A DNA stretch of 63,035 bases, counting the filler, from Dugesia japonica (Eukaryota), in NCBI GenBank assembly GCA_001938525.1. It is 6 parts of 6 records of this genome, joined end to end, with 100 filler letters (N's around TTAATTAATTAA, not from the genome) between each part and the next. Parts side by side here need not be neighbours in the genome. Positions count along the whole stretch, not along the records: positions 1 to 11,019 come from MQRL01601317.1; 5 more parts are not named here. One strand, 5' to 3'. The notes below the pieces were generated by a model, which was given only the letters and a program-made list of their open reading frames with translations, was not told the origin of the DNA and made no database searches. Position 1 is the first letter of the stretch. Every line of letters begins with the position of its first letter. Below are positions 816-59,194 of the stretch, piece by piece. The position numbers and the translations under genes are program-made.

Positions 816-2070
816 TGTTGATAACTTGACTCGGATAGAATCTAGTCTGATCAAATCATTTTCCTGAGTCTGGCTTATTTAAAGTGATGAGGGATTAAAG
901 TGAAAACTACCTCTATTTTCATAAAATAAAAAAAATATTTTTTTATAATATAGAAAGTAAAACTTCGTTATTCTAGCAATTTTTATAACCTATCAAAAAC
1001 GATGAATATTTATAAAATAACAGTCAAAATTATTTTAACATAGCTAATTTTATTAAAATAAATTATATTCCATTTTTCACATCCTATCCGTTTAACATAA
1101 TTAAAATAATAATTTTACTTATTCGTTCGAATAAAAGGATTCCTGCAACGGGTTTCTTTTCGTGAACAAATACTACTAATTTGGCAGTTCCTAGGATTGA
1201 ATCTGGAATTCTTCGACTTTCCTTTTTTATTATTTTCTGTTATAGCACGCTACTGTTGANNNNNNNNNNNNNNNNNNNNNNNNNNNNNNNNNNNNNNNNN
1301 NNNNNNNNNNNNNNNNNNNNNNNNNNNNNNNATGCAGTTCACAATCAGGTTTACACAGAAAATTCCTTTTGCGTTTATGAGAGTACAAAAGTTAATGTTT
1401 TGTTTTCGAAATTAACTAACTGTTTTCTGCTAAATTTAGGGGTCCTTTTATAGGGTTTGCCTCACACCCCAACTTCTTCTAGATTTGCTGATTATTTTTA
1501 GATCAGCCTTTTCCTGATTCTATTGGCTCCAATGCCACTTCTCCAAAATTTTCTACAAGTTTTGGTGCCGCAATTGATAGCTATTTTGATCATGACACCT
1601 GACATTTGTGTCTTTGTTCTATTTTTATTTTTAGGTCTCATTGGCTCGATTTTGGAAGCCTTACCACTCTGGATGGTGGTAAGTTTTTGCTTCCTCGCAA
1701 TTCTAATGCGTCTTGTTATCTACTTTCCGTATTTTCTTTCCTGGATTTCTTCCGACTTTCATGACCAGAGTTATTTGCACAAAACAGATTTTGTCCCAAT
1801 TTTAATTAATTTTTCTGTTTCAATTTATTATTATTTTCTTGTAATTATTTCTTCTATTATTTATTTTCTTTAATAACTTTATTAATTTTGTGATTATTAT
1901 GATTAATCACATTTAATTCGATCTTCTGAATTTCCCATTTAATATCATTGCCTGGATTTTCGTACTTGTTTTTCTTAACATGTTTTATTCTGTACTTTCC
2001 ATCTTGATATTGGGCCATTCATGACCCCTTTCGATCTTGCTTTCATTCCTCTGGTTGTTTCACCCCAACA
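816..2070 (-). mobile_element. Long (~1.25 kb) LTR of a Ty3/Gypsy-type retrotransposon
   Basis: On the minus strand it starts TGTTG (2070) and ends CAACA (816), with TATAAAAG at 1452-1445. It is preceded by purine-rich GGGGGATAGGTG (PPT-like, 2082-2071) and followed by TCGGGGCTTGAC (815-804), resembling the tRNA-Pro PBS TGGGGGCTCGTC. Confidence 0.6.
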
Positions 2071-2434
2071 CACCTATCCCCCGATTTACATGGAAGATCG
2101 GAAAATCGAAATTTTGGTTTTTAGTATGTAAAACCGTGTAAATCGAAAAAACCCACTAAAATATGGATAATTTCGACATTTAATTAAGTTAAAAATTAAT
2201 TAATTATTCGTTCTACAACCACAATATTTTTATCAGGTCTCTCATTTAGTTCTCGAATTTTTAATATTAAATACAAAATAGCTGTAACTACTTTATTTTT
2301 GTTTATTCCCTCTTTCATTATTGTTTTTAATACTTTATAATCATCAATTTCTGGATTGTTATTATCAATTTATTCACTTCGTTTATTATAAGTTTCATGT
2401 CTTCATAAATCATTATTGCTCTATTTTATACAAT

Positions 2435-2692
2435 CTAGGTTATACAATCATATAAATCGGCATGCACTAACTTGATTAGACTTATAAGTCCTTTATCTGA
2501 TCCAGCTGATGCTTGTTCATCATATCTCTCTGATATATTATTTAAATGTTCAACTTGCATTTTTTCTGGTATTACATCCTCTGATTTTGGTCTACTTACT
2601 TCTTGATCTTTTGTAATCTGACGCTCTGTCTTTAAATATTTTTTGTCTCGGGATCTCGCTTCTTTTATTATTTGGTGTTGATGGTCTTTCAT
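2435..2692 (-). pseudogene. Short charged ORF directly downstream of a second LTR-like segment (possible gag N-terminal remnant)
   Basis: 85-aa ORF starting 14 nt past the CCAACA end (2706) of an LTR-like repeat; no diagnostic motif. Confidence 0.3.
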
Positions 2693-2705
2693 CCCTCGTG
2701 CTCGA

Positions 2706-3419
2706 TGTTGGTAATGGAAATAAAAATAATAAATTTATAAAAGTAATAAAATAATAAAAATATAAAATAATTAATATGAAAATTCAATGTCAAATAGGAT
2801 AATTGGATGGATTTTCTCTGATCTTGGATGGGTTTGAATTCGAATATTGATTTGAGATTGATTGTTTATCTGAATACTTGTTATATTTGTGTGTGTATGT
2901 TTATATGTATATTTACAAATCAAACCTCAACAATTTGATGGTTCGTAAATTGAAACTATAGATGATTATTGATTTAATAATTTATTTTACATGCTTGATA
3001 TTATTGTTGTTTGTTAATACACTATTATATAAATGTAATATATAGGGTATTATAATGCAATAACTGCATAATATAAATAACGAAGATAATACCTTTGATA
3101 ATAATTTATTTAGATGATAAGTTTGAAATCACTTAAAAACTTATTAGCGAAATTTTAAATGAAACTGGAGCTGCTGCCCTTAGAAACGACAATTTTTGAC
3201 AAAAAAATTACTGAAACATTAGTATTTATACCGAATCTGTTCAAGATACACATATGGTGTTTGTAGACAGTTATAAAAATTATTTATAAAATAAAATCAA
3301 ATTTACAAATATTTAAATAATTTCAAATAAATTTCATTATAGATTTAAAAATAAAAATTGCTACATACATTTCAATGTCTTAATTATTTATATTCTTTTG
3401 ATTTGAAGATAAGATAACA
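2706..3419 (-). mobile_element. LTR-like segment (family B, copy 1)
   Basis: TGTTG...TAACA termini; minus-strand TATAAATA near 3230-3223; shares CTGGAGCTGCT..GACAATTTTTGAC..GAATCTG with 3785-3870. Boundaries approximate. Confidence 0.45.
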
Positions 3420-3517
3420 TTGATTGTTTATATTCATTAATTCACATTAATTCGAAGACAATTCGATAAAATTAATTGTTAATATAAATCCGAATCGTAT
3501 AATCAAATTGATGACAT

Positions 3518-3899
3518 TGTTGGGTATTTCCACTCAACAAAGTGATATTAATACTATACCTAAATAAAATAAATTGATGATTTTAGGTATATTGATTTTA
3601 CCCTTGAGTGTATGTAGATACGATAATATATAAAGTATATATTACTACAATTTATAAATAGGGTAATATAGTGTATTGCTTTCCATATATAAGTAAACAA
3701 AGATATACCTTTAAATAAATTTTTTTGGTGTATAAATCAATATTGCTTACAATAAAACCTTATGGAGCTAGAATTATGATGAACCTGGAGCTGCTTCCCA
3801 TAGAGATCAGAGTCCAGATGACAATTTTTGACTGAAAATCTACTAAAAAAGATCAGTATACTGAATCTGAATCAATAGGCCGATATAGATATCTTAACA
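3518..3899 (-). mobile_element. LTR-like segment (family B, copy 2)
   Basis: TGTTG...TTAACA termini and internal homology to 3165-3240; no clean TSD. Confidence 0.4.
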
Positions 3900-4683
3900 C
3901 TTCATGGATCAATTCAACATTCATGTGAAATGTGAGGATAATTTTAGTAAAAAATAGAACCCGAAATAATGTCAATTGCAGTAATCATTCTATTAATAAT
4001 ATCCACAAAATACAACAATTATATTCCTTGCGACATAGTTGATAACGCGAACATTGCTAATCCCGATGTAATTCCTTGTTCAGCTTTTCTAAAAACTCCA
4101 TGATCAGCTACCAGACCATGGGTATAATTAATTTCATTTTAACATATATTGGTATTCCATAGTGCATTTACAGTAGTGGCATATTCTGTACAGACATGCA
4201 TAAAAATGGAGACACCAAGAATAACTGGTTAGTTGATTCTTCGTTGGTAATTTCTGTAGAAGAACGATTCCGAGAAAAAAATCTGAAAGTACTGGTTATA
4301 AAATATGATGTGCTTAATTACTCAATCATTAACGAGGAACTAGACGCTATCGATATATAACAACTGGTGACTATATAATATCAGAGAGAAATATGACAAC
4401 GTGACTCATCTATGATTGTGAATGCCTGTTGTTTGTAAATTATGTTTCTCTGCTCGATGAATCCGAGGTCAATATAACATACATGGGACCTCGATTAATG
4501 ATACTGTCGCAACAACGGCATAGTACAATATTTCAGTGTGGCCAAAATCCAGCAATAATAGTGTTGTAAATACCGGAATGTAGTCGTGTTTGATCATGAA
4601 TAGCCTTGCTAATTTCTAATTTGCGTATAATCGATTCTATAACAAAAATCAGTATGTAAATTCTCAGGTATTTTTCATTATGC

Positions 4684-4828
4684 ATGACAAATATCATATA
4701 ACTAAATTAAATTTCACAGAACTAATTGAACTCAACAGGTTTTCTACCATATATGACATAGCTAAATTAAATTTAACAGCATTTCTAACATAATGACATA
4801 ACTAAATTAAATTTAACAGAATTTCTAC
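4684..4828. repeat. Three imperfect copies of ATGACATA(A/G)CTAAATTAAATTT(A/C)ACAG
   Basis: Directly visible repeats at ~4695, ~4753 and ~4793. Confidence 0.75.
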
Positions 4829-5229
4829 TCACTATTTAATTTATTTATTTTCGAATTCTGCAACGGAATATTCAAATATCGTCAGTGGTGTAGATTGAGA
4901 TCGTTACTGATTCCTTGTTCAGATTTTCTTTGAAAAAAAATTAGTTCTGATTTATTTATAATATTTTTACTTTGTTACTCTCTTAGATATGGTTCCGTAA
5001 GTTCAGTTTTCTTCTTATCACGAATTGCTCTAATTAAATATGCGACTTCTCCAATAATTTTGTATATGGTTAATAACGTACAATACTTTTTCTCTGATAG
5101 AACTGTTAGAGTGTTGTAACAGTGGTTAATTCAAGGTTTTGTTATTATTTTGACTAAAATCATTGTTTTTTTATATGATTTCCCGATGCAACTCGGCATC
5201 ATTGTAATTGAGTTTCTATTTTTAATTTG

Positions 5230-6162
5230 AATCTCTGGTTTCCAATAGGCGATGGTACCAATTTTCCAATTTTTTTACAGAGTTTTAGAACTCACATTGG
5301 TGTCTGTTTTTGGAGTGACATGTGATTGTCATTTCTTTGTTCTGTTTTTATTTTTCGGCCCCTTATTGGCCCATTCGGAAAGCAATGTCTTCGGGTGATA
5401 ATCTTATTTGCTGTCTATTTGTTATCTAAAAACGCTCTCGGGTATTTGGCGGTTTGATATACATATGAGCAGTTTTGTATGTTAATCTTATAAACAACGA
5501 GATTGTATCTTTCTTGGTCTTTGATTTGACTACGAATTCTTTGTTAAATTCGAATTTTATCTAGGATCTTTATGTCATATCATATTAGTTTGATTAGTCT
5601 ATTCTTTTGTTTAACTGGGAGTGGTTCATAACTAATGGTTCGAATGTCGTTATTCATTTGCTTTATGGATATCGCGTCATGTTGTATACACACTGTAGAG
5701 TATTCACTGATTGGGTTACCTCTGCCAGGCGTATCTATCTGTTGCATGGCTGGCTTTAGATGTGCAAGTCGAATGCAGTTATTGTACGGCATCTTTATTA
5801 ATAATGTTAGTTGTACGAATTGACCTATTATTGGATTTTTTGTGGTAACTGAATTCGGCTTTTACTAGATTTCAACTAATTATCTTATATGATCTGCAAG
5901 AAAGGCGTGGTAAGTGTCGGAAAAGGTTTCGTCGAAGTATTGAGTAATACATTCGAACAAAAATAATGTCCGCATTGTGCTATTCTAGGTAGTACAGTCT
6001 GGTCATAGCATAAGGGACACAGTGGGTCTTGTAAGTATTGTAATTATTGCGATGTCACGCTAACTGTATTCAAAGGGATTTTTATACCTCTGTTTTTCAT
6101 ATAATGTGATTCGTGCACTATTTTGTAGAAATATTTGTCTCTATTGAAAAGCTAGGTCCATT
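5230..6162 (-). pseudogene. RNF10/Mag2-like C3HC4 RING E3 ligase, frameshifted and stop-disrupted
   Basis: Collinear minus-strand blocks: QIFLQNSARITLYE (cf. RNF10 ELFLQANCQFVV); CPLCYDQTVLPRIAQCGHYFC/ECITQYF...SCRS (cf. [29 protein letters not shown]...CPIC); KNPIIGQFVQLTLLIK (cf. HQYVVGDTITMQLMKR); CSYVYQTAKYPRAFLD at 5471-5424 (cf. CYYFYQAEDGQHMFLH). A TTTCAG acceptor-like site precedes 6162. Reference motifs are from memory. Confidence 0.72.
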
Positions 6163-6289
6163 CTGAAAGATAAATATTAAATATTTATTTATATTACTAT
6201 TAATGGCGATTAATACTGTTATTATAAATATATATTTGCATGTTTGTTTTACTGCTTTGTGTTGTTAATGGTAAGTAACACACCTCCCT

Positions 6290-6780
6290 GTTCCATGGCT
6301 ATTGTATTAAATAATGAGTTCTCTACTTTAACAGTTTTTCACCTTCTATAGCCGTCCATCTGACTAATTTCTTTTCAAATTTCAAATATATGTCCGCTGG
6401 TATTTCTTGTTAGTGGAGTTCTCCCTATTTTATCATGTCTCCTGGTTTTCTCGATACAGGTGCTTCCTGGTTTAGGCTCGATTTTACATGTTCATATCTC
6501 TGGATATCTAGTCTTGCTGCCTCTTCATCATCTGAATCCGAAAAGCTATAATTTCCTTTTTCGTCATTTGTTGCTTTTGACTCTTCCTAAGTGATATATA
6601 AGTTTCCGTTTCTTCGTCTTCTGAGTCACAGTTTAATATCCATATAATGCTCACTGGTTTTATTGTTTCTCTAATAGCAATTTCATTTAAGGTTTTGAGT
6701 CTCCTCGTGGTTGTGTATTATTTATTCTTCCTGTTTGTAAGGAATCCTTACATTCTTGTTGGATATTTATCTGTTTATAA
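6290..6780 (-). pseudogene. Degenerate acidic ORF remnant upstream of the RNF10-like gene
   Basis: Coding-like composition with fragments such as YSFSDSDDEEAARLDIQRYEHVKSSLNQEAPVSRKPGDMIK; several stops and frameshifts. Confidence 0.35.
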
Positions 6781-9700
6781 GTTATTTTAATCAGTGTTAT
6801 TCTTTTTATCATAAAATTATCATAATCCGCACAATTTACATGTCATTTTATTAAGGTAAATACATCAAGTCTATTTATTTACATATTAAATACATCAAGT
6901 TTTTTTATTTACATATTAATTTAATTAATTTATACTAATTACAATAAATTACTAGCAAACTTGATTAATTCATAATCAATTTCAGTAATTATTGTATTCA
7001 TTTTATCAAAATACATCAAATTTTATACAATTATATACACATTTTATTAAGTTTTTCCAAAACACGTCAATTTCTTTGAAATGAACACTATATTATTTGA
7101 CTTCTAGAGAGTAATTTAGTTCATTGGTTACTATTATAGTCCATCACAATTCACTCAATAGTGATTAAAAGCCAATCATAGGCTTTTGTTGGGCTGGAAC
7201 ACAAAAAATTGTGAAATAATAGAAGATGTAAAGATTGGCCAGAGTTGCGGAAAATAGAGAAAAGTAAACACAAAATTGATGGTCTGGACCAGAAAATTGA
7301 TTATTATCCACAGGAAAATTATTATTATTATTATGGTCATTATTATTATAATTATTATGGGAATATTGCAAAATAACGGAAAATAAAAATTGGTTCGTGT
7401 CACAAAATTGAAAATTATATGAGAAGAAAGGAAAAGAAAAAGTTAATAATAAAAATAAAATACGATAATATAATAATTTATTAAAGGGGTCTCTACGACC
7501 AAATTTCATTATTATAATAACGCTGTATCGCGTTTAATATTAATTATTATTCTTTAATTAAATTGTTCCAGTCATCAGTCCTTGTCTAGCTGACGAAAAA
7601 TATAACGAAAATCATCAGCAGATTAGCTGAATCATTTTCTGCTAGACAAAGACTTCTCAGTAACAACCAGAGGTCACACAAAGTGACTGACTGGAGAAAT
7701 CAAGTACATTAAAGTTGGTGTGTGAGCAACACCCAACGAAGAACAACTCGATTTCCGAACCTATGTCGTCCAATCAAAAAGCCAGATTTGACTTAAATTG
7801 AAAATGATATACGAACAAATAGTGGAATGAAAGTTGTAGGGCAAACGAGAAATTAACCTCGTTTGCACCGAGAAAATAGTCGGAAATTCGAATCAAATTT
7901 TTTTGTAAAATTTACATTAGTGATCACAGTAATTTACGTTAAATTTATCCACAATTGTTATCTTGACATCGTCAAATTAAAACAGATATTTTAGCAATCA
8001 TTATTGGAGCACGGAAATCTATCAGAAGTAATTAAATTTATTATTTACCAGTATTCATTGTTGTAATATCATTATTTACATGTAAACTCCGAGTGTCCTA
8101 AGTGGAGGTCGTGTTCCCGTACAGACAATGAAAAATGAAAACATGAAACGAGTAAAAGTGTCGAGCAGAAATTCTGAGAAATGATATAATGAAAATGAGT
8201 AAAATGACGATCAGAGATTATGAGAAATGTAACTATAAAAATAAGAAAAGGTTATTCCGAGATGAGGGAAACGAAACCATGGAAAGAGGCAAAATCGCCA
8301 ATAGAAAATAGTCCTGGGGGATCAATGTGAAAACGTCCAATAAGTGAATCAGAATTAACAGGATTCCTCGCAGAAATTGAATCGGGAATACCCAGAAATT
8401 TTATGACCAACATCCCTACAGAATTGATTAGCAGTTCGGGAATTGAGTTTCGGTCTGAATGGTAGCGTCGAATGGGAGCTCGCCGACTAAAATAAATTGT
8501 CTAAATAATTATCGGATGTTTTATTTTTGTTAATTATTCTTGTTAATTATTCATTGACCTCAGTTATTAATACAAATTTTTTTTATTATTGTTGTTATTG
8601 AATTTTAATTAGTTAAGTCGTCAAATGCCAAATATCGTTGATTATTGTAGTGCCATTATTTTAATTAAATTGATAATCATCGTTACAAACGAATTTCTCT
8701 AAATTTTAATTCAATAATTCCCTGTCAAAGGTGAAATTGTTTTGTTTAATACTTAATGCTCTTATAACAGAATGATTGAAGCGTAGGAGATTGATAACAG
8801 GGAATCATCTAAGAATTCCTGAAGATGGTGACGAGAGAGGACAGTGGTTTACCGCTGACATCTTCTCTTGTTCGCTCTCTAGGAACGGGGAACAAGAGCA
8901 AATAGGCCACAATCCGAAAAAACGTTTTATTAATTAAATCTAATTTTTTTTATTTATGAATCTCATTTAGTAGTGTTATAACAAATTTTGTTAAATTTTA
9001 TTTGTCGATGAAAAATTACCATAATGAATGTTTTACTGAGCATAGAGAAAGTTTTTACTGTCAGGTTTCACAGATTTAATGAATAAGACGCGATACCGAA
9101 AAGTCGCACTGAACCCGTAGAAAAAGGGGCATGTCTAAGAGGTGATATAAATACTTGTGGTTTTTAGGTATGCCCCTAGACATGCAAATGAATTAGTGAT
9201 AATTAAAAACGAGATAAGTGAATTCGAAGAGAAATTTTAAAACATCAAATCCTAAAAACCCGACAAGTGTTTTGGGGTGCTCAAAAAAATGAAATCTGTT
9301 TCAATTGAATAAAATAGACAGCAATCAATAGGGAATAAAATAATGAAACGAAATTTGAATACAAAATTGTTGTGTATAAATCATATGATAGAAAAAAGCT
9401 GATTAATGAATCGAGAATGTTAAGATGTAGAAATTTATCATTAAATTGGTATGAAATCGGAATAATTAAAATAAACGATTATTTAGAAGTCGACATTTTG
9501 TGAATTGATAAAATGATACCGGAAGTAAATCGAATTAACGAAATAATTGATTCTTTGAAAACCGAAATTTTGGGAATCGATAAAATTATAGCAGAATTTG
9601 ATAAATATAGAAAATTTCAGGTCATAAGTTATGATTTAAATTGTTTCGGGAGCACGATCATCGGTTCAGCTTAAAATTTTATTTATTAAATATTTATGAA

Positions 9701-13249: not shown

Positions 13250-13313
13250 TGTTAGACTTGGAATTCAAATTAAGCATGAAATATATTCATTATATCAATA
13301 ATGAAACAGTTAG

Positions 13314-13347
<34 letters not shown>

Positions 13348-13495
13348 CTTTTGAAGAATCAGATATGTAATAAATTTGAGCACTTAAAATTATACTCAAA
13401 CTTATACATTCAATCAGGCATTCACCTTTTATTAAATATGTAATACTCTTTCAGATATGCAAAGGTCAATATCGAAATATTAGTCATATCTCACA
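13250..13495 (-). mobile_element. 3' LTR of a Gypsy element (same family as 58961-59194)
   Basis: TGTTAGACTTGGAA...TAGTCATATCTCACA, homologous to 58961-59194. Minus-strand PPT-like AAAATGAAGGAA immediately precedes it; contains a (TA)n run. Confidence 0.8.
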
Positions 13496-13539
13496 TTCCT
13501 TCATTTTAAAGTGTTTTAACCATTCAATATTTTTTATTA

Positions 13540-14330
13540 TTTTTTTAACCAATTATTAGTTCTAATTTAAAACTTTTATCGTCTATGTTTTGTATAATTC
13601 TTGCTGGTCCTTCATATCTGTTTTTATGAAGACTCTCTTTTAATTAAAACTTCGTCACCAATATTAAATTTACAAATTATATTATTCTTTTCTAAGTTTT
13701 TGGAATTTTCATAGTTATTTAAATTGTTTATAATTATTTTACACTTTAGATTTCTTTCATTAAAATTATTTTGATAATTCTTAAGAATCCCTTATTTGTT
13801 TAAGTTTTTCCCAAAAATTATTAAATCTAGAGAAACATTCGTCGTTCTCTTAATTGGGGTGTTCAATATAAATTCTATTTCTTGTAAAATTTCTATTCAG
13901 TCCTGCATTTTTTTATCCTGTAGACTAATATGAATTATATTTCATATAGTTCGAAATTGTCTTTCAATTATTCCATTGGATTTCATAATTGAATTTCTTT
14001 GCTGCTTGTTGGAATAAAATTGATTCAAATAATTTTCAACTATCTGCATTATTCTCAGTGCACCATTTTTCAAAATGCAATTGTTTTTTAATATTTTAAC
14101 AGTAGTTTTTTGTCTTTATGTGATACTGCATTGAGAGATAAATTTATTGAATTTATCAATTATAGCTAAAATATATTATTTTCCATATAATTTTCTCTTT
14201 AAAGCACCATAAAAATCAATATAGATGATTTCAAAGATGTCATAAGCTGGAATACTGATATTTTTTCTTTAGTTTGAGTTGTCTGTGTTTTTCTTAATTG
14301 TCAATTTTTACAACTTTGAGCAACCTAAAA
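13540..14330 (-). mobile_element. Degenerate Gypsy integrase
   Basis: Minus-strand fragments SNGIIERQFRTI, LQEIEFILNTP...TTNVSL and RYEGPARII, upstream of the PPT/LTR. Confidence 0.75.
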
Positions 14331-15859
14331 ATTAATTGATTCCATAATAAATGAAAAATTAGATAATTACTTTTATGAATATGAACTTCAAGACTGCGTT
14401 AATTCTTGATTTTAAGGAATTTCAAAAAGTGCTTAAAGCACTCTTGATGAATTCTTTATAATAATATAAATTAATATAACTAAAAGTTCTGAAAATGAAT
14501 TACTCAAAATATACTCATTTATGCTTATTAAACTTTAAAATGACGTTTCAACTTTTAAAGTATAGTACAAATTTTGATTTGAAAGATTTTAACGAAAGTT
14601 TAACGTATTCGTGAGTTGATAATTTAGTTAGACAAGGTCAACCATAACAATGTGAAAAATCACTTTTAGGAAAGAGCTGATGATATTACTCATACGAATA
14701 ACTTCATAAGAGTTAGTTAAATCATGTATATGTAGCTACAACGGCAATAGCAACATCGAATAAAATTTACTTCATCCTTAATTTATGGAAGAAATACGTA
14801 TTAAAAACAGAAAAAGTAAATAAATTTGTTAAATTTAAAATGACATTCAAAGACACTTTTATTCCATCAATAAAATCAACTTGTTTTGCTACAATTTCTA
14901 AATTGACTGCAATTAAAGTCCTCCGTGTCTTGATTTTTATGAATAAACATATAGATTTGAAAGAAAATCGCCGAAAAAGACTAATATCGAAAATTCGGAT
15001 TACTAACAAAGAAGAAAAGAAGCATTTTTGATTTAAACCTTTTAATTTATTGAAGTTTTAAGTTTACTCGTTTCGATTTATATAAATATAATGAAAGCAC
15101 CATCATAACATGTAGCTCAAATATAATTTAAAATAATACGTTCATTATTTTTTAAAGTATTTATTATTTAACTTGTTTATTTTTCAGTGCTATACTATGT
15201 ATTTGTCCCGAATTGTATAACAAATTATTATGAATTTTATTAGTGAATAATAATTTTTAATATTTTTGATTACAGATAATTGTTACAGATAATAGATAAT
15301 TGTATTTCGTTATTACTAACTATTATTGTTAATTATTGATTAAATATCTAGCATATTATAATAAAAAAATATTAAAAGTAAAATTTTATGACTGACAAAA
15401 ATCGCGTGTTCAAAAAATTAAATTAATTTAAGTGAGAATAAAAATCCTGAAATATTAAATACAAATTAAGATCGAAAGTTAACATCGATATTTTTGTGAA
15501 TGTATATGAAATTCAAACCCTTAAATATCGCGATTTAAAAACTAAATCAATGCCTCATATGTTGTTAAAAAATATGATTTTTATAACTGAAAATTAAGAT
15601 TTTTCATATCGTTTTATAATATCACGTACTTTTTGAATATTATATTCATGACGTATTTTTATTGGAAATTATTATTTAAAAATGTGGTAAATAATAGCAA
15701 AAGGTTAAAATGAGTTAATTTAATTGCATTGTCAATCTATTAAACATTTAAGTTTTGTATTACAATTTTGTCTTAATTATTTAAAATATTTAAAATTACT
15801 TAGTTAATTTGAAAATAAATTGTTTTAGTGAGTAAATTTCAAATATATCAACATTAAAT

Positions 15860-18042
15860 ATGGTAAAAACTTTTCTATTTATATGATTTTTTATTTTTTC
15901 TGGTTTAGGAAAACTTCAATCGTAAAAGAGCAAAACCTGATGATTGGGAAGACATTGAACCATCCAAAGTTATACATATAAGGGAGTTAGCTGAACATAC
16001 ATTAGAAATTGATGTTTCTCGGGCCATGGAAAAATTTGGTCCAATTCGTGATATAGCAATGATACCCAAGAGACGTCAAGCATTGGTAGAATTTGAAAAT
16101 TTACCTTCTGCTCAAGAAGTTGTTAAAAGGTGACTTGTTATTTAATGATATTTATTTAAAACGTTTGTAGATATCGAAATGATATTATATATATCGCCAA
16201 TAGACCGGCTAAAATAAATTTTAGTACTTCCGAGCATGTTCTNNNNNNNNNNNNNNNNNNNNNNNNNNNNNNNNNNACTGCAAATAAAGTGTTGATATTT
16301 TTCATATACGATGCTATTTATCCCATAAATGTTGATGTAATTACTAAAATATGCAAACCGCATGGTAGAGTTATTCGAATATTTATCAACAGAAAGGCTT
16401 CAGTCATGCAGGTATGTTTTAAAGTTGAATAATTTGTCAAAATCACTTAGATTTATCTGGCAGCCATTTTGATTTTTTAAATTTGTGCACGTTATTTTTA
16501 AATTTTCCGAACTATGAAAACTTTTTAATAAGCTTAGTTAAGTAATCGTTTAAATTTATTTATTGTCTTCAAAAATTCATTTAATATACTGAATTTTCGT
16601 ATAAATTGATTAAACATTATGGAGATGTGTAATATTTAGCCTTAAATTTAGTTGTTAATTTTACAATTCAATGGAATGAAAATTTTCCTTATATGTAAAT
16701 AATTATATCGATAAAATAAAAAACAATATAACTCATTAATGCAAATGCCCCTAAAAGATTTTAATTGAATTTTACTAAAAAGTTAAATATTTAAAACAAT
16801 TTATTGTTAATTAATTTTTTATAATTATTCTAGCAAATGAAGTTTATTTAATGTTAATCTTTTAAGGCACTTGTGGAATTTTACACAGTTGATGATGCCG
16901 TTAGAGTTAAACGTAATTTGAATGGTGCTGATATATATTCTGGATGTTGTACCTTGAAAATTGAATATGCCACTACAAATCGTGTTAATGTTGTCCANAA
17001 TTCAGAAGACAGTTATGATTTTGAAGGATCGCATATGAATGTTCGGGGATCTCAATCATTATTAGGATTACCCAACAATTCCGAAATGCCACCTCCGCGT
17101 GAGGGTCTTATGAGCAGACCATATGATCCTCCTAGAAGGGAATCACAATTTAATGGTTCCTACGGAAGTGGGAGAGAAAGTGGATATTATGACGAAATGA
17201 GAGAACCCAGTAGAAGAATGATGCCTCTGAATAATTCACTCGATAGTTCATATGGATATGAGGAAGATTATGGCCGTGAGCCTGATAGAAATTATAATGG
17301 TGGACCTCGTGTTGCTATGATATATGGTCTTAATTTAGAATTTGTCAATTGCGATAATTTATTCAATCTGCTATGTATATACGGAAATGTAGTCAAAATA
17401 AAATTCTTGAAAAGTAAAGAGGGATCAGCAATGGTACAAATGAGTGACGGTGTATCGGTTGATCGTATGATACATCTTTTACATAACCAGGTATTATTCG
17501 GGAAAACACTGCAATTTCAAGTATCTAAACAACCAGTTATTATGGATGTTCCGTCACCATACAAATTACCTGATGGTACTGATTCATTTAAAGAATATAT
17601 CAATTGCCGTGAAAATCGTTTTCTTACTCCTCAACTTGCTGAAAAAAATCGCGTTTTTCCACCTTCAAAAACAATAAATTACTGGAATGCTCCACCTAAT
17701 TTTGGATTGGAAATGATACAAGCTGAATTTAAAAAGTATAAAGCTGTTGAACCACCAGAATTCTTCCAATTAACGAATCGGGATAAATCATCTTCTGGTT
17801 TACTTCAATGGGCATCGATTGAAGATGCCACAAATGCCATTGCATTATGCAATCATATCATGATTGAAAGTGAAGGCGCCAAATTCCCATATCAATTAAA
17901 GCTAAGTTTCTCTGAGAGCCCCATAAGACATGGACCACCTTTTGGAAATAAAAAAGAAGCTGGAACTGATTCTGTACCGTTTAATCGCAAGGCAAGGGAA
18001 CGACCACCATTCTTTGTTCCTAGTAAGCGTGGCCGATTCTAG
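15860..18042 (+). CDS. HNRNPL: Heterogeneous nuclear ribonucleoprotein L (4 RRMs), ~546 aa; exons 15860-15862, 15909-16129, 16171-16411, 16867-18042
   Basis: RRM1 SKVIHIRELAEH...MIPKRRQALVEFE; RRM2 NKVLIFFIYDAIYPINVDV...LNGADIYSGCCTLKIEYA; RRM3 MIYGLN...NLLCIYGNVVKIKFLKSKEGSAMVQM; RRM4 PPSKTINYWNAP. All GT-AG junctions keep frame, including across the N gap. AATAAA near 18168. Confidence 0.93.
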
Positions 18043-20273
18043 GTGAGTCGCAATAATTGCATAATTTGCTCGTTGATTCGTCTTATTTTGTCTAATTGTC
18101 ACATCAGGCGATATAAAAGTGTAGTTATTTCTACATTAAAATCAATATATGTATACATTTTGTAACAATAAAATATTTATTCATAATCAATGACAATTTT
18201 GGACAAAATAAGTTTATCAAAGTGCATTTAAGGTTTAATACAATTCAAAATATACATATATGAACACAGGAAATAAAACTTTTCCATTTTAGACACACGA
18301 GAAAGAGAATTACATGCTGGAAACATTTTGCAAATACATCAGTTACATTATAAATGTTCGTCATATTCACACGTTTGTTATTCGTACAAATATAAAGTTG
18401 CATTTTTAATTTATTTGCATGGTGCAATATTAAATATTTCATTCATATTATAAATGCATTTAAAAAAAACAAAACATGGGCAAATTAATTACAATACAAA
18501 ATGTCAAACTGCATTTAGTTTTCATTTTGGTAGACCCATTTTCTTATTTTTATGTTTTATTGTTTTTTTTTTGAAAGCTTTGGAATTTGCTGTTAGCTAT
18601 TAAAATTTTAATAATTGGTGTTCAATTTTATTTTTAAAAATATATTGCTAATATTTGTTATTTCTTGAATAAACAAATGTAAATTGCATTTCATCTTGAG
18701 TTGTTTTCTATTTTGTGGTTCTACTGGAAATTGTAAAAAATTATAGATATCTTAAGGTTATCAATAGAATATTAAAATTTCAAAGCCATTTCTAGTTATT
18801 TAGAATTACAAAGTGTTTTAGAAAATTAAAAATTCAGTTGAATATATATGTATTGTAATAGAAAATTGGTTAGCGATTTTGTATATATTGATTTCCGATT
18901 TTTTTAATTATGTAGTTGAAATAATAAAAAATAAATATTGACAAAAGTTCTGATTCATGGTACCGGACAAAAAGTTCCCGAGTGAAAACTAGGACAAATG
19001 TTTCTTGGTTGAAATATTCAACTTCGAGGATTTCTTGTCCGGGTTTTAAACTTTAGGACTTTCTATAACCGACTGATACATAAATCTACTCCATGGCTTT
19101 ATTCAATTTCATGTCCGATTCGAACATTACTAAAACCAAACATGATTAGAAATTGAAATCAAATGAAAACTATAAAAGCTATTTTCATTAAATAAATTTT
19201 ATTAAGCATTTGTTTTTAAACATTTTTATAATTTAACAATTTGCAGTCAATGTTTTGCGATAATTGGTTTATTGACACATTAACAGCACTACAGAAGAAT
19301 ATTTATATGTTAACTCTTTGAGGCGTACAATTTTAGAAAATAATTATTTTTATTAATAAATTTGTAATAAGAGAATAACAATATAATAAAAAATAATAAT
19401 TCAATTAAGTTTATTTCATATTTACGCATAAAATAGGTGGGGCACTTAATACCGCCATGCCAAGAGTTGAACAATTACAAATTCTAATAATAGTTGGAAT
19501 AAATTAATAATATTTTGGGTATTGAAAGTTCAGGAATATTTTATAAATGATTTTGGCTATTAAAGAATGGATTAAAAAGTTGGGTTGAATTATGATTTGA
19601 AAGGATTCTTAGTTTTTTTTCATATTGCATTATTAGGATAATTTAAAGGAAAAATCTGCCCGATATTATAATAAAGTTTTAAATTATTTCTATAAAAGGT
19701 AAAAAAAACTTAGTTTTTATATCCGAAATAAGTACTCATATATAGATTCATTTTATTCTAGATCGATATCAATTATTTTGGAGATTTCATTTGGAGAATT
19801 TTAGATCTTCATATTTAGTTGGAATAATTTATAAATCCCGGTCATATTTTAATGGATTTTTTTCAATTCTCGTAATATGGATATGGTTTTACTGGATTCA
19901 ATAAGTTCGATTAGAAATCTAATAATGTTTAAGGTAAAAAGAAAGAAACTACTGTTTTACTTTTTCTTCAATTTCTTTTGAAATTTTGCTTTCTGGTTAC
20001 ATTTTTGTAAATTGATTGTTCTAGAAATTTCAATTTTTGAATAATTAGTTATTGAATATCAATAAATGTACCAATGGTAGTTATGAAATTATTCTAATTT
20101 AGTTCTAAGTGATTTATATTTTCTGTTTATTGTCGTTGCAATTTATTATTGTTATTGCAATTTCAGTTACTTTAAACTATATAGATTGCTGGTAAGTTTT
20201 ATTATTTGGTTGAAGTTAAATATATTAAATTTTACATTAAATTAGTTTTTATTTCTAAATGAATTATCTAAAT

Positions 20274-23099: not shown

Positions 23100-24410
23100 A
23101 AAAGTAAAATAATAAAACTATTTCAGTATATTTTAATAATCTTATTGTACTCAACTTCTTTGCTTGCTCTTTTACATTTCTGCTTGCTCTTTGGTTTTAT
23201 GGGTTTATTTTTTTCCTTTTAAATACCCAATATTCAGATACATTGTTACAGCATATTGTTGATATATTTTTCAACATAGAAAATACTGAACTTATCATTA
23301 GAAATATTGATCTCATCATTGAAAATATTAGTTTCAATAGATAAAGTTATAGTTTCATCATTAAAAAACATCGGGTTTATCATGAAAATACTGGTTCTAT
23401 TATGCAAAGATAGATTATTTTTCTCCATGTACCGCATACCTTATTTCTTGAATTGTCTCAATTATTCGATAAGGTCCTTCAAATCTGTATTGACTTTTAT
23501 TTCTTGTTTCTATCTTAATGAGTACAAAGTCGCCCACTTTGAATTCTCTATTTGTATTCTCATCTGAGTGTTTTCTTTAGTTTTACCGGAAACGTCCGAC
23601 TCATATCATTTTTCTCTGCTAATTTTCTTTCCAAATAAAATCTCAGCTGGGCTCACTCCAGTCGTCTTAGGCTTTCTTGCGTTCATTGTGAATTATATTT
23701 CCGGTAAAAGATCTACCCAATCTGTTATCTTTCTTTCCTGAAGTGTTGCATTAATCAAATCTCGAATTATCCGGAACTGTCTCTCAATTTGTCCGTTTGC
23801 AATATGATGATAGGGACTCGAAAAGCAAAGTTTAATATCTAACTTCACTGCAAACTCTCTTGTAACTTTGGATTCAAAAGCTTTTCCAAAATCGAGTCTT
23901 ATTTCTCTTGGACATCCAAATCTCAATATCCACTTTTCAAAACTAGCTTTTCGTATTGTTTCTTCGTCTTGTCTAGGCAATAGTATAAGAACCAGATATT
24001 TACTGTATTGGTAGATTATTCCAAGAATGTATTTTTTTCGTCCACTTGTTTCCCGCATTTGCCCACATATATCTGTGAATATCACTTCAAACAAATTTGT
24101 AGCTTCTAATCTCTTTGTGAGTCGTCACTACTTTGATCTTCTGACAAATTTCACAACTACGAACTATTTTCTGTATTTAGCTCCACAAATTCTACGCAAT
24201 ATATTTGTTTCTCATGTATTCGTGCACCTTCTCAACTCCTGCATGACATAATAATTTATGTATTTATTCTATTGTGTTATGTATTTTGTCCTCAGAAATG
24301 TTTAATTGCTCTTCTTTTTCCTTTTCAATCATGTTTAGTATTCTCGTTTTAATCTTCTTATTCTTGTCATCTTGATGTGACATTTGATATTGTACGATAT
24401 TGATATTGTA
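23100..24410 (-). mobile_element. Degenerate Gypsy integrase region
   Basis: ORF 23693-24094: FEVIFTDICG...WILRFGCPREIRLDFGKAF...SSPYHHIANGQIERQFR (rve core); upstream QMSHQDDKNKKIKTRILN linker. Confidence 0.88.
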
Positions 24411-25133
24411 ATCGATTACATAATTCCGAACTTATGTATATGTTCTCTATTCTTAGTTTTAATAACAGTTTGCCTGAAGATGACAGATACACTGTCGAAA
24501 CTTGTGCTAAATAAATATTTAATTACATGGCGTATTAAATTATTTATAAATAGATTGTCATTATTCTTTAACTTTTTGGATTATTATTTTNNNNNNNNNN
24601 NNNNNNNNNNNNNNNNNNNNNNNNNNNNNNNNNNNNNNNNNNNNNNNNNNNNNNNNNNNNTTATTATTATTATTATTATTATATTACTATTATTATATCA
24701 TTATTATTACTAATATTATTTCTATTATTATTATAATTAATAATTTTGAAATTTGAAATAGAAAAGTAATATTAATTTTTAAAAGTTGCATAAATCATAA
24801 ATTTTAATTGTCACAGATTTGCATTTCATTGTTATAATATATAAGATTTCCTAATCTAATCCGACATAAATACACTTGAAAACCTAATAAAACTAAATAT
24901 AATAATAGCATGTAAAATTGTATTTGAAACAATCCAAATAATAACAATATAAAATACAATTTTCAAAAATTTAAATAATAGTAATAAAACTGTTTATTGA
25001 AGTTTCTTTTTGTATTTGTAAAATAAATACAAAGATATTTATGGATGCAATAAAGAAATTCACTTGAAATGCGATAAAAATTCCGATATATAATTGAATT
25101 TATTTTTCATTTCTGTATTATTTAGATATAATC

Positions 25134-26045
25134 ATGTTTCATTTTATAATTTACATATTGATAATTAGTGTTGTAAATTGCGATATTTATGAATCTGCGG
25201 ATTCATGTGTTTTCAATAATATGACAACAGTAAATGCGGATTCTAATATCAAATGTGGAATAGAATGTAGTCTTAGACAATGTAAAGCATTTAAATTTAA
25301 TTCGATTGCAAAAAATTGTAATTTGTACAAATCGTCTGAGATTTGTCAATCAAATACTAATTGCACAAACAATACTGTTTTCTNNNNNNNNNNNNNNNNN
25401 NNNNNNNNNNNNNNNNTTATTTAATAAATATATTCATTGATTGATATTCTAATTCAGTATGAAAGTGATAATATTGGATTCAGATATAAAATATTGAATG
25501 GAGTTAATTACATATTTGATATTGGAAATCCATCAGTATACAATATTAATGATTCTCATGCAGCTGGTCCTTTACTAGTTGGAAACTCAAACAAAGTAAT
25601 AATGGGATTGGGAACATTTGGAAATAGTAAATTAATTTTGTATCCAAAAGCTCGTTTTGCTTCAAATTTGGCTCAATCTAAATTAACTAATTATCGATTG
25701 GCTACAAATATATTGAGATATTTTACTAATGGAGATTGCACTGATCCAAACGATTGTTATCATTCAATTGTTTATTATGTTAATTTCACTTATTTAAAAA
25801 ATCAGGTATTTGGGATAGAACAAGATTCAATATTTAATTTGACAGATTTGTTGAGCCAACCAAATATGGATAATTGGCATTTTATTGTTTCAGGAACATT
25901 TTGGATCTTCCCAATTTTTCCAGATATTCAAAAATTGGTCAATTTATATGGCTTGTGTATTACAACAAGTTCTGATAGCACTGATTTCTTTGTGAGGGGA
26001 AATATTTGTGAAAATATTACAAATTATAAAAATGGCAAATGTTGA
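25134..26045 (+). CDS. Secreted PAN/apple-domain protein; exon 1 from 25134 (donor hidden in the N gap), exon 2 25458-26045
   Basis: Hydrophobic signal peptide MFHFIIYILIISVVNC; PAN-like CGIECSLRQCKAFKFNSIAKNCNLY; TTCAG acceptor at 25457 in frame with the 202-aa ORF. Confidence 0.75.
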
Positions 26046-27987
26046 AAATGATAATTTTATTAGTGAGATTTCTCATTTAGTTTTGAAATTTAGTTTTGAA
26101 AATGTTTTAATCTTAGAAAAATAATTTTGATTATTGATTTTAATATTTTACCATTTGTTTTAATTTATTGGTGTATGCTTGTATCATTTTATATTGTAAT
26201 AGTATTTTGTTAATTGTATCATATTGATATCGATAATGATTTCAACAAAAAATTTAATTATAATACCGATTATAAGACAGTTTTTTAAAAAACAGATTTA
26301 AATTTTTTGTTTTGAAAACGGAATTTATTAAAATCAAATGTATATTTAAAATTGTATCAAGAAAATAATTTATAAAATAAATTAATAAAATTTAATGATT
26401 TTTAAAATATAAAATTAAATGAATAAAAGATGTTTATTTTAGGATATTTTTTAAAAATAAAAATATTTGTTAAATAGAATAAAATATAAAAATAAATGAA
26501 TAAGAGATGTTTATTATAATGTATTTTTTAAAATCTAATATAATTTAAATGTAATAAAATATAAAATTAAATATTTAGTATTTTCCGTTTTTAAATTTGT
26601 TTGTTTAAACAATTAATGATGTTATAGTTTTTATTGTAATAAATTTATGGAGTTGAATTCTGATGTTAATAATTTTATGAGTTTTCGAAACTCATCTAAC
26701 ACTGATTATATGGAGCTTTATTAAGTATTTTGTTTATTGAAACTAAAAATCGTAAACATTTTATTGAAATATTTATTTGAAAATTTCTCCAATATTTTCT
26801 AAATTCTGTAAAATTTCGATTTGAATGCAATTTTATTTAACTTATAAAATTTAACAAGACTGAAAAAAATAACGAACTAATAATTTATTGAAACATTTAC
26901 ATTGTCAAATCAGTAACAAAATACAGAACAATAAGATATGAAAAATAAATTACAAATGAAAAAATAAATGTTAAAATTATTTAACAAAATAAATTTTTGC
27001 TCATTACAAAAAAGAGGAATTATGTTAAAAAGTCGATTTAAAAATAGAAATTTCAAAAAAATTAAATGCATAATATAAAATTGTGAGAAATATTAACCAA
27101 TCAAAATTGATGAAAATAAATCAATAAATAAATCCAAATTAAATAGAAGAATTCTATAAATAATAGTTAACTGTATAATTTTATCCTTTAATTGAATTAA
27201 ATAAAATGTCTAAAATTGAAAATAAATTGACTTCGAATATCAATACCATAACAACGTGATATGTNNNNNNNNNNNNNNNNNNNNNNNNNNNNNNNNNNNN
27301 NNNNNNNNNNNNNNNNNNNNNNNNNNNNNNNNNNNNNNNNNNNNNNNNNNNNNNNNNNNNNNNNNNNNNNNNNNNNNNNNNNNNNNNNNNNNNNNNNNNN
27401 NNNNNNNNNNNNNNNNNNNNNNNNNNNNNNNNNNNNNNNNNNNNNNNNNNNNNNNNNNNNNNNNAAAATTTCAAAATTTCAAAAATAATAATTTTCTACG
27501 TATGGATGTATGTATGTGAATTTGTTTGTAACTTTCGAATATTAGAAGAAATATATTAATTTAAAACATTGATTTATTTTTTGTATTTTTTATTGAAATT
27601 TAAAAATTGACACAAAAATATTTGTNAAATAAATTCAGAGTACAAACAAGTTAGAGATGTATAAATATAAAATTTAAATGGCCGTTAATTTATATAAAAA
27701 TGGTTTGTAATAATTTTTTTGAAAATATAACAAAGTAAAGCTGTCTTAAAATAAATTTAATTTAAAGTAACCGATATTTTCATGAAAAATATGTAATAAT
27801 AAAATTTTATTAAAAAAATTATGAAATTATAACAGTAAAATCTATTCTTAATTAAACGCAACCTTGAGGGAAAAGAAACTGCACCTTATAATTTATAAAA
27901 AAAAATTACCTAACTCGCAGTTGAATTACTAATTTTATTGAAAATATATTGAATATCTAAGTCTATTTCTCAAGTAATCTATCACTT

Positions 27988-29998
27988 TTGAGCCATCCAT
28001 CGTTAAATGACGTTAGTAATTATCCTCAAGGGGTCGAAAAGTGGAATGATATTGGAAAAGGTACAGAAAAGGTATACAGGTTCTTAAAGAGGGAAAATTT
28101 TGCAGATGATAGAAAAGTAGAATGGGTTGGAACAATTGAAGCGCAACAGAAAACAAATATTTTATACCATAAATTGCAAGGCAGACCAAGTCTTACTGTA
28201 TCAATTCAAGGAAATAAAGTAGAATGTCTATTAGATACAGGGGCCCGAATTAACGTTATGAGTTTGAGTTGTTTTAATAAATTACGAGAAATGCATTTAG
28301 AAATGAGTGACAAAAGATTGCGTTGTGCAAATAAAAGTATACTTGAAATTGTTGGAAAAGTTAAAATTGGAGTGATAATTGATGAAGTTTGCAAAGAGAT
28401 TACTTTCTTAGTTGCTGAAATAGTCACACCAGATCTGATAAGAGGAATAGATATGCAGAAGATTTTTACATATCAACTTAGGCGAAAGGTTAACAGCAAA
28501 ACTAATGAAAAAGTAGAAAATTACATTTGTAATATTGAAGAAAAATTTGGGAGACAAATTAAAAAAGGAGAGCGATTAACAAGAGCTTTAAATATTTTGA
28601 AAATTAAAGAGTATCAACGGTTATTGTAAATAATTGAAATTAAAGAAGATGCTTTTATGGCAGATAATTAGGATGTAGAACGCACAGATCTAACAAGACA
28701 CAAAATAATCACAAGTTGTGAACCAATCAATGTAAAACCGTATAGGCAACCAATGAACTTAGAATCTAAAATTGAAGAAGCTATCCAAAACCTTTTTGAG
28801 AATAAAATTATCCGGAAATTCAACTCTCCTTAGAATACAGCATTGATTTGTGTTTGGAAAAAGGAATAGAGGACATAAAAATAAGTTAAAATTTCAAACA
28901 ATTGAATGCTGTAACGAAAAGACAAAACTTTCCGATGTATAATGTCGATGTAATGCTGGACAAGTTAGATGGAGCCAAATATTTCAGTTCAATAGACTTG
29001 GGAAATGCGTACCATTAGGTAGAGCTCGAAGAAGAATCTCAAGAAAAAACGGCATTTGACATTGGAGCGGCACCAGGGACATTTCAAAAGATGATGATAA
29101 AAGTGGTCGGCGGAATCAATGGATCCATGGTTTATCTTGATGATATTCTGATATTTACGAACAATAAAGATCAATACTATAAAATAATTGAAAGAGTATT
29201 GATGAAAATAATGAAGGCTGGTTTAAGAACAAATCCAGAAAAGTTTCAGTTTCTACAAAACGAAATCAAATTTCTTGGACACTGAACTGACTCGTCTAAA
29301 AAAGAAGCAATAAGAACATTTGGCAAACCTAACTGTGTAAAGAAGCGGCGCAGCTTTTTAGGAATTTGTAATTATTACAGGAAATTTATAGAAACTACGC
29401 AAGAAAATCAAGAATTTTAGAATAGTTCTGTAGCGGACCAAGTAACAAGAAATTAGAATGGACAGATGAAATAAACGATACTTTTGAGGGTCTGAAGAAA
29501 TCTCTAATAACTGCACCAATATTGTGTGTTCCAAACATAAATAAAGAATTCATATTAAATACAGATGTCAGTTTTGATACAATTGGAGCAGTATTGTCAC
29601 AGAGAGATAAAGAAGGAAGAGAAAGAGTTGTTGCTTATGGATCACACTCAATGACAAGTCATGACAAGGGATATTGCATTACACGAAAGGAGTTATTGGC
29701 TGTTTATTATTTCTGTATGCATTTCAAACATTACTTGTANNNNNNNNNNNNNNNNNNNNNNNNNNNNNNNNNNNNNNNNNNNNNNNNNNNNNNNNNNNNN
29801 NNNNNACCAATTACGTCACAATTCCAGACATGGATTAATTATCTGAGTAGTTTAGACATGGTTTTGGAATATATAAAAGAAATTCAACATAGTAATGCAG
29901 ATATGTTATCTAAACCAAGATGCGGGATATGTGTACAATGTCAAATGTCACATAAAGATGCCAAGAAAGGGAAGATTAAAACAAGAATACTGAACATA
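27988..29998 (+). mobile_element. Degenerate Ty3/Gypsy pol (protease-RT-RNase H)
   Basis: LLDTGA protease, KPYRQP, SIDLGNAYH, VYLDDILI (RT), LNTDVSFDTIGAVLSQ...YCITRKELLA (RNase H); multiple stops and frameshifts. Confidence 0.93.
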
Positions 29999-30981
29999 AG
30001 TAGGTAGATAGTGGCGCATCAGCCCACCACCCCACTGGTCAGAGAAATTTTAAGGCTGAACATATTTTAAGTGGCGCACCCCCTTCCCCCCACTGGCCAG
30101 AGAAAATTTTGGGCTAAAGATTTTTTAGGCTGAACATTTTTTAGGTAGATAGTGGCGCATCAGCCAACCCCCTCCCCCCGTGGGCAGAGAAAATTTTGGG
30201 CTAAACATTTTTTTTTACTTTTTATTTTTATTTTTTATTTTTATTTTTTCTAAAAATTTTTTTTTAAATTTTTTTAAAATTAAATTTTTGTGGAAATTTT
30301 TGGTTTTAATTAAGTAAAATTTGGTATCGTTGGAATTTTTAAGTGATGACAAATCTGATTATTGCGCTAAAAATTTAGTGACACGTCAACATAAACGGAT
30401 TTTCAAATTTTAAAATTTAAAATTTTTATTTTTTCGAGTCGAGACCGATTCCATTCTTCCTAAAATCAAAACGTACCTATACATTACCTAAAGGACTACT
30501 ATCGAAAAGTGCTTCGTTTCGGAGATAAAAGTTGTGGTGCATCAGCCCTACCCCCCCCCCCTAGCCGTCGAAGGCAAGGTGGTAGGAAATTCAACTTTAA
30601 ACATATAGATGTAGAATTTAATTCTAAGAATTTCTGTCATCTCTAAACGTTGGATTTGTGTGTCAACGGCACACATATTACCCTTTGAAGATTTGAAAGC
30701 AGTCTATCTCCAACATTTTGAAAAGTGGCCCAAAATAACTTATACGCAAAAGGTAGAAAATTTAATTGTCTACATTTCATATATCCATTGTCATCAGAGA
30801 AAATGGTTCAATTTTGAGATATTTGACATATTAAGAAATTTTACTTTAGGGTGGTAGCTTTGAATTTTTCAACTTGAAAATGATGTCATTGATTTTAGAA
30901 TTAAAATCTGTCTATACATTGTCTAAAGAATAATTACCGAAAAACGCTTCCTTCATGGTGAAAAAAGAAGGACGTGAGAGT
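29999..30981 (+). mobile_element. Repeat-rich DNA-transposon terminus, Polinton/Maverick-like, interrupting Gypsy pol
   Basis: Starts AGTAGGTAGATAGTGG exactly where pol homology stops; internal repeats GTGGCGCA..C-tract..CAGAGAAAATTTT. Family assignment is inferred from the AGT terminus only. Confidence 0.5.
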
Positions 30982-43659: not shown

Positions 43660-44087
43660 TCAGTGTTCCTTGTCAAGAAAATATCGTAAGCCACAATAAC
43701 CACAGATGTGATTTCCAGGTTTATCCTAAAATAATTTTTAAAAAATTCCATACTGTGAAATAATTTACTAAATTTATATAAACTTTAGGATGACCCAATG
43801 CTTCGTGACCACCGTTACAAGATACTACCTTAGTTTTCGAAGCTATTGGAGGAACTTCATCAATTAGTTTAATAGCAAATTGCTTATTAACCAATTTTGT
43901 CTTGTCTATAAATCGAACATTTCGAAAATCGTCAGGTTCAAATTTCTACATTTAACTTATTTATTAAACTTTTATTAATATAAACTTGTCCTGTATGTGT
44001 AATTTCATCAGATTTCAATCGTACTAATATGTTTTGGTTGAAAATTCTAAATGAATTCGCTATGGGGCTTAATCTAATTTTGTTCAT
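43660..44087 (-). CDS. NDUFS6: NADH:ubiquinone oxidoreductase subunit S6 (zf-CHCC), 114 aa; exons 44087-43986, 43945-43769, 43725-43660
   Basis: Spliced translation MNKIRLSPIANSFRIF...EITHTGQ|KFEPDDFRNVRFIDKTKLVNKQFAIKLIDEVPP...VSCNGGHEALGHPKVYINL|DKPGNHICGYCGLRY; 40- and 43-nt GT-AG introns. Confidence 0.95.
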
Positions 44088-58950: not shown

Positions 58951-59194
58951 GTGGTTGCCATGTTAGACTTGGAAAATTAATTAAGCATAAAATATATATT
59001 CTAAACACAAAATGACATTGTAACAAATATATATAGCTTTTGAGGAATCAGTTATGCAATAATTTCTGAGTACTAAAATCATACACACATTCAAACAGTC
59101 AATCACGCAATCACCTATTATCACATACATATATCAATTTACTTATATAAATGTCAATATGAAAATATTATATTATTCTTAGTCATATCTCACA
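58951..59194 (-). mobile_element. Gypsy 5' LTR (59194-58961) plus PBS-like TGGCAACCAC (58960-58951)
   Basis: TG...CA ends, homologous to 13250-13495, followed directly by TGG and gag. Confidence 0.82.

Follow-up and report, generated by a model that had tools for sequence, protein, structure and literature searches.

Positions 6161 to 5405 on the minus strand of the 63,035-nt stretch of Dugesia japonica DNA analysed here (hereafter the window) hold a dead, 3'-truncated RING ubiquitin ligase gene of probable RNF10/Mag2 type, and we give about even credence to the reading that it was likely carried as accessory cargo by a low-copy Gypsy-type element. The decayed gene itself is real. The features on which the argument turns, with P0004 as the closest intact protein, are the following.

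816 to 2082, minus strand: a purine tract (2082-2073) and a 1.25-kb LTR-like repeat, TGTTG..CAACA, with no twin in the window.
2240 to 2720, minus strand: an orphan reading frame, decayed, that immediately precedes the purine tract, with no Pfam family and no match elsewhere in the window.
4835 to 5168, minus strand: a moderate-copy continuation of the LTR piece, likely R/U5, at a contig depth of 55-113.
5080 to 5390, minus strand: a 5'-truncated LTR piece, homologous to 1665-1335 of the downstream LTR, whose core (5168-5378) belongs to a very high-copy family (summed depth 3300-4900, against 4-6 for this copy).
5405 to 6161, minus strand: the decayed compact RING E3 ligase gene, RNF10/Mag2-like, which matches residues 1-271 of P0004; the 3' end is absent.
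5424 to 5504, minus strand: the YQ..FL block, corresponding to P0004 residues 235-261, the best match in the window; by itself not above its shuffle control.
5888 to 6043, minus strand: an open stretch with the first half of the C3HC4 RING, from Pfam and the alignment to P0004.
6163 to 6252, minus strand: a 90-nt AT-rich spacer with GT..AG ends, a candidate intron or splice acceptor read from the sequence.
6300 to 6813, minus strand: orphan reading frames that precede the gene, A-rich and decayed, in part common to related copies, with no notable Pfam family.
6814 to 7150, minus strand: a very high-copy repeat by depth, its low end at 6814; the upper end is estimated from composition, and 6814-6850 is the only part compared with contigs.

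In a frameshift-aware alignment, the minus strand from 6161 to 5405 is collinear with P0004, with 81 of 246 residues identical and a score of 236, compared with 38.8 ± 3.9 (maximum 51) for 25 shuffles. The alignment starts with residue 1 of P0004 at the ATG at 6161, ends with residue 271 at 5405, and crosses five stops and five frame changes (near 6029, 5955, 5929, 5832 and 5420) without an intron-sized gap, so the first-pass annotation was right to describe an intronless and broken gene. Its four collinear RNF10-family blocks also lie on the minus strand in the order given, but the gene part ends near 5405 and not at 5230. For all four parts of P0004 this locus gives the strongest match of the window, and their order is preserved. 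Two of them, the RING block (6022-5939, score 82 against a shuffled maximum of 51) and the post-RING block (5840-5595, 105 against 62), pass their own shuffle control, the N-terminal block (6161-6030) reaches 57 against 61 and the YQ..FL block 40 against 47, and the alignment as a whole passes strongly. In 5888-6043 Pfam recognizes a C3HC4 RING by its first half (zf-RING_UBOX, E 1.1e-5; zf-C3HC4, E 1.5e-4), and seven of the eight zinc-ligand positions of the P0004 RING are retained when all frames are counted. Residues 276-386 of P0004 have no match anywhere in the window (best score 55, shuffled maximum 58). In the minus-strand translation the motifs noticed earlier are scattered over three frames; their origin by chance is excluded by the match to P0004 and by the score of the whole alignment against the shuffles. 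Among the 16 of 871 contig pieces listed, three of the five frame changes are bridged without a difference by a contig of X1, a DNA run that is possibly the source of the window, and one also in X7, a DNA run from another study, thus these frame changes are not assembly errors.

P0004 is an intact protein of 386 residues with a full C3HC4 RING (Pfam zf-C3HC4, E 3.6e-7), recorded as a nameless single-member UniParc entry. At 33% identity it is the closest intact protein among 1.84 billion representatives, against which one frame of the locus, with stops written as X, was searched by phmmer. It matched query positions 2-248 (E 9e-8), the RING of the query being out of frame; the other 12 of the 13 matches, bacterial SWM-repeat proteins matching by the summing of repeats, were dropped. 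In a word-indexed protein search, none of 349 candidates matched the read-through of the window, the single candidate did not match the RING piece, and P0004 returned only itself at E 0.01 among 2726 word-sharing candidates. The read-through found nothing in the PDB, and the NCBIfam search gave nothing useful. A single-sequence fold prediction of P0004 reached a pLDDT of 35. None of 11 pattern matches in viral contigs was confirmed, and these contigs contained no motif match to P0004; one of 95 metagenome contigs gave a 24-residue match between stops, which was judged to be chance.

The pre-RING block, the post-RING G..I.L.LL block and the YQ..FL block of P0004 are what we take to be RNF10/Mag2 motifs, since human RNF10 and yeast Mag2 combine a C3HC4 RING with a short conserved pre-RING block, a post-RING G..I.L.LL and a YQ..FL. 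P0004 differs from these proteins in its compactness, starting about 50 residues before the RING, and the copy studied here in being broken, in lacking the last third and in being without RNA. Judged from these motifs and from language-model matches, membership of the RNF10/Mag2 family is likely. There is a small chance that the gene belongs to another C3HC4 RING family or that its motifs are fortuitous, which would be compatible with any origin considered below. In favor of this, no named RNF10 was among the matches of the word-indexed, phmmer or PDB searches, the PDB matches of P0004 were RING-only (COP1, BRCA1, TRIM), and P0004 without its RING dropped to 0.82 in the language-model atlas, under 0.9. 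Against it, chance is excluded by the phmmer match and the frameshift-aware alignment, the flanking motifs of the RNF10 type are present, and the whole P0004 scored 0.92-0.95 against pan-eukaryotic RING clusters of 399-666 residues, themselves unnamed, with sources in arthropods, diatoms, fungi, chordates and plants. For S. mediterranea, the accessible text of one survey gives RNF10 as the best human match of two of 393 RING/U-box transcripts, both expressed, with low scores of 74.7 and 58.5 bits (PMC8807557). Host paralogues therefore exist, and P0004 may be one of them.

The 3' end of the gene is defined by a retrotransposon. Two DNA contig sets were aligned to 4835-6850 at 80% likeness, with depths summed over contigs, and over 5175-5378 the summed depth is 3,100-4,900, compared with 3-6 for contigs identical to this copy. 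The homology to P0004 ends near 5405 and the high-copy LTR match ends at 5373-5378, so the gene stops where a 5'-truncated LTR of the same sense, directly downstream, begins, a junction that was absent from the earlier account. This LTR piece has its counterpart in the downstream LTR at 1665-1335 (97 against 18 ± 7 in a global alignment; 239 of 350 nucleotides identical, or 68%, in a same-sense local alignment), and CCAAT-like and TATA-like motifs were seen in it by eye. A 376-nt contig that covers 4951-5329 with 35 differences, together with the depth over 4835-5168, indicates that the LTR subfamily has other members. Three further assignments were rejected: 5378-5200 as the C-terminus of the gene, since it is LTR sequence; 5163-4900 as a further ORF, since it continues the LTR piece; and an LTR end at CAACA 4561, since the extension is not significant (p 0.29).

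The first-pass annotation had assigned the gene to a large LTR retrotransposon ending in the LTR at 816-2070, which holds only in part. The TGTTG..CAACA repeat and its purine tract are present, but they are twin-less in the window and separated from the gene by about 2 kb of unrelated sequence. At 68% likeness the LTR piece is not the partner of 816-2070 and is unlikely to be an LTR of the same element; a link between the gene and that LTR in particular is unsupported. The LTR at 816-2070, its purine tract and the orphan frame at 2720-2240 look like the 3' end of a related element. No LTR pair was found in the window, the two LTR-like sequences being 68% alike over 350 nt, and the gene does not lie there between two matching LTRs with a target-site duplication. 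Pfam and frame scans of the window found no gag or pol between 2070 and 13,500. The closest integrase, at 14253-13795, terminates in a purine tract and a 250-nt LTR (13497-13250) of its own; this LTR is a different one, and the integrase was rejected as part of the gene's element. A deletion could explain the absence of gag-pol upstream of the gene, and no large element can be drawn in the window. In the spacer between the two LTR-like sequences, 3038-3239 and 3654-3869 form a direct duplication of about 200 nt that is 66% alike, and the 250-nt LTR of the decayed Gypsy integrase (13250-14253, minus strand) has a 74%-alike relative at 58961-59194.

On the upstream side, the repeat at 6814 reaches a summed depth of 13,900-18,400 in the DNA contigs, and elsewhere it continues into a purine tract and then TG, as upstream of a Gypsy 3' LTR. 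A low-copy block of 1.4 kb (6813-5379) thus sits between two same-sense Gypsy-like pieces, and the gene has same-sense mobile neighbours on both sides, the LTR piece downstream and the pre-purine-tract repeat upstream. Two neighbours would share the sense of the gene by chance one time in four, and LTR neighbours are to be expected in a window full of Gypsy fragments on both strands. The spacer at 6163-6252 is 17% GC, its AG lies one base before the start codon, and an in-frame ATG is found upstream at 6296; it may have served as the acceptor of an accessory RNA or equally as a host intron behind a short exon 1 that begins at 6296. The missing introns are weak evidence here, because single exons of 394-487 codons occur in host-type ORFs of the window. 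The orphan frames at 6800-6300 were rejected as homologues of the one at 2720-2240. Further upstream, the strand bias of 7150-8400 is flipped relative to the gene block, possibly marking another inserted element; this stretch includes an N-rich frame without a Pfam family (7179-7442, minus strand).

The window as a whole has 26% GC and combines host-type genes with decayed Gypsy fragments of protease, reverse transcriptase, RNase H and integrase, which lie on both strands. Gypsy pol is represented by at least six separate and decayed remnants, at 27961-30007, 41533-43240 and 60970-62470 on the plus strand and at 23693-24400, 44800-46580 and 55650-56421 on the minus strand. An hnRNP L-like host gene (15909-18042, plus strand) has RRM_5/RRM_8/RRM_10 matches in a 394-codon exon and an RRM piece upstream. 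Intact single-exon ORFs of 480 and 487 codons without a Pfam family occupy 36230-37672 and 46958-48421 on the minus strand, the latter presumably resembling the N-terminal part of the proteasome activator PA200/Blm10. Two adjacent open frames of 108 and 205 codons (25098-26045, plus strand) have no Pfam family, and a zf-CHCC zinc finger exon (43724-43945, minus strand, E 1e-8) probably belongs to a host gene for a mitochondrial complex I subunit. A hAT dimerisation-like piece lies at 57277-57507, and 57914-58710 and 60054-60951 are a duplication, about 80% alike, spaced 2.1-2.2 kb.

The gene is not a single copy with unique flanks. Related copies exist in DNA contigs of the same species label, the best being about 84% alike, and in two DNA runs they cover the RING region and the upstream flank. 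One contig of 903 nt aligns to 5920-6168, differing by 39 other letters and eight gap letters; its depth is 10. Contig depth is not copy number, and a depth of 10 could come from a single locus that is homozygous, compared with a hemizygous one here. Other letters were found at 5987 and 5999 in six and five contigs of X1 and in five and two of X7. Both runs contain contigs with the joints 5462-5956 and 6211-6397 and with a 6-nt gap at 6269, at a depth of 9-12, compared with 3-6 for this copy, indicating relatives that keep the RING and YQ blocks and others that reach the upstream flank. Unrelated RING genes could account for short matches to the RING core. Two breaks of this copy are apparently not common to the relatives. 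Over 5379-5446 the depth is that of this copy alone (4.8 and 3.9). At 80% likeness no relative covers the central part of the gene (5515-5718), so the family is either low in copy number or old. No related copy joined to an LTR was seen among the 16 of 871 pieces listed, the contigs being short. Third codon positions account for nine of 12 listed differences (p 0.004), which suggests that the copies likely diverged while they were coding. The 12, one of which adjoins a frame change, are those counted of 13 within 5987-6132 from 40 listed differences (92 more exist); the difference at 6108, also a third position, was left out because it comes from a short high-depth contig.

Expression was followed in two RNA runs that carry the same species label, from which 10.5 and 13.6 million reads were used, or about 6% and 25% of the respective run. 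Three and 29 reads could be placed, all less than 90% alike and with a partial fit, nearly all of them on the LTR piece. In these roughly 24 million reads the RNA depth was zero over 5379-5990, and over 5991-6126 it did not exceed 0.37. The two libraries show no visible expression of this copy or of an 80%-alike parent, though expression restricted to a tissue or strain may be missed in them; among the listed runs recorded as containing the stretch, none is RNA. With no reads at 80% likeness over 5379-5990, a close and expressed parent gene was not found in these runs, which, together with the flanks common to other copies, argues against an ordinary processed pseudogene.

A gene that is few-copy, silent, formerly selected, flank-sharing, joined to an LTR and without a close expressed parent is most readily understood as an accessory gene of an LTR element, and a silent cargo family once under selection is a fit that we hold to be as probable as not. 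The related copies, the third-position bias and the direct junction, at which the same-sense LTR piece starts where the gene stops, speak for the LTR-cargo capture proposed in the first-pass annotation, whereas a linkage of the other copies to LTR or gag-pol was not seen. The main rival is a duplicated host paralogue family, in which a fast-evolving compact RNF10 paralogue with restricted or lost expression was duplicated as DNA, flanks included, a few times and this copy died and was then cut by ordinary LTR insertions and deletions. We consider this possible, with a probability well short of even. The third-position bias would fit functional paralogues equally, the candidate 90-nt intron and the upstream in-frame ATG resemble the structure of a host gene, LTR fragments are dense in the window while the relatives are few, and S. 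mediterranea has the two RNF10-matching transcripts of PMC8807557. A host paralogue sits less well with the two RNA runs, in which the 6% and 25% read contained nothing from an 80%-alike relative along most of the gene, and with the missing 3' third, which a simple insertion would have left beyond the LTR piece and which was not found there in a search of low sensitivity.

Passive LTR-mediated retrocopying, in which the mRNA of a divergent RNF10 paralogue template-switched into a Gypsy RNA and the chimera was inserted without use to the element, is improbable. A truncated intronless gene with same-sense retrotransposon pieces on both sides matches the chimera of PMC5131818, as far as its accessible text describes it, but such a retrocopy needs a close expressed parent, and none was seen in the two RNA runs. 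In addition, the gene carries the upstream orphan frames and the candidate intron along with it, and the copies diverged with a bias to third positions. A RING ligase and A-rich orphan frames at close spacing are frequent features of Helitrons, Polinton-like elements and DNA viruses, and cargo of such an element or of an endogenous DNA virus, now buried in Gypsy fragments, would likewise be multi-copy, silent and selected. The chance of this is slight, as no hallmark gene was found nearby in the Pfam and frame scans and no relative of P0004 was found in viral contigs.

Returning to the accessory gene of an LTR element, we tentatively hypothesize, as one possibility that is more doubtful than cargo status itself, that a family of flatworm LTR retrotransposons kept a stripped-down RNF10 as a spliced accessory gene under purifying selection, steering host uS3 ubiquitylation and 40S turnover to the advantage of its own RNA. 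The element would have captured a compact RNF10 paralogue long ago, and the captured gene would have been kept under selection while the subfamilies diverged; P0004 may be an intact representative of this compact lineage. Expression of the captured gene would have been from a spliced RNA that used the acceptor immediately in front of the ATG. Later this copy would have decayed, and a deletion may have joined it to the middle of the U3 of the LTR. While alive, the product would have acted as a ubiquitin ligase on 40S subunits, as RNF10 does on uS3, either with the same activity as the host enzyme or in competition with it, and the outcome would be a changed host handling of ribosomes stalled on the RNA of the element. 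We infer the translational-surveillance role from family membership only. RNF10 and Mag2 ubiquitylate uS3, and also uS5, which leads to 40S decay, according to the accessible text of PMC12008924.

Captured host domains in LTR elements are already known, above all in planarians. As the accessible text of PMC6431247 describes them, the giant Gypsy elements Burro and GYPSM1 carry host-like domains and accessory ORFs, and Burro elements have ubiquitination- and apoptosis-related domains (AIR1, Smc, MATH/TRAF, BIR, ankyrin, BCL2-like, SUMO-like, dUTPase-like, env). Burro differs from the present case in that its domains sit in or upstream of one huge polyprotein, and RNF10 is not among the domains listed there (PMC6431247). 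None of the Burro features (more than 25 kb, a giant polyprotein with MATH, BIR, BCL2, ankyrin) was found near the gene in the frames scanned. The accessible text of PMC8532177 and PMC11410931 contributes no further lists of domains. Orchid Ogre-like elements similarly keep an ORF for a host enzyme, an AlkB-type demethylase, across subfamilies; there, unlike here, full elements are present and activity was shown (PMC9289625, accessible text). The LTR-mediated retrocopies of Tan et al. 2016 are intronless gene pieces flanked by discontinuous same-sense retrotransposon sequence, but those in the accessible text are young and close in sequence to a parent gene, whereas for our gene no close parent was seen and the copies show third-position bias (PMC5131818). 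Among the papers listed, our literature search found no ribosome-quality-control ligase as LTR cargo, and we found no report of the RNF10 type among captured domains; Grohme 2018 or Repbase may record a RING ORF.

If the cargo reading is true, it would reveal a transposon strategy tied to the RNF10/Mag2 surveillance of stalled ribosomes. Whatever the origin of the decayed gene, P0004 offers a minimal RNF10-like protein of natural origin, in which the blocks retained by the family can be recognized and which can be assayed.
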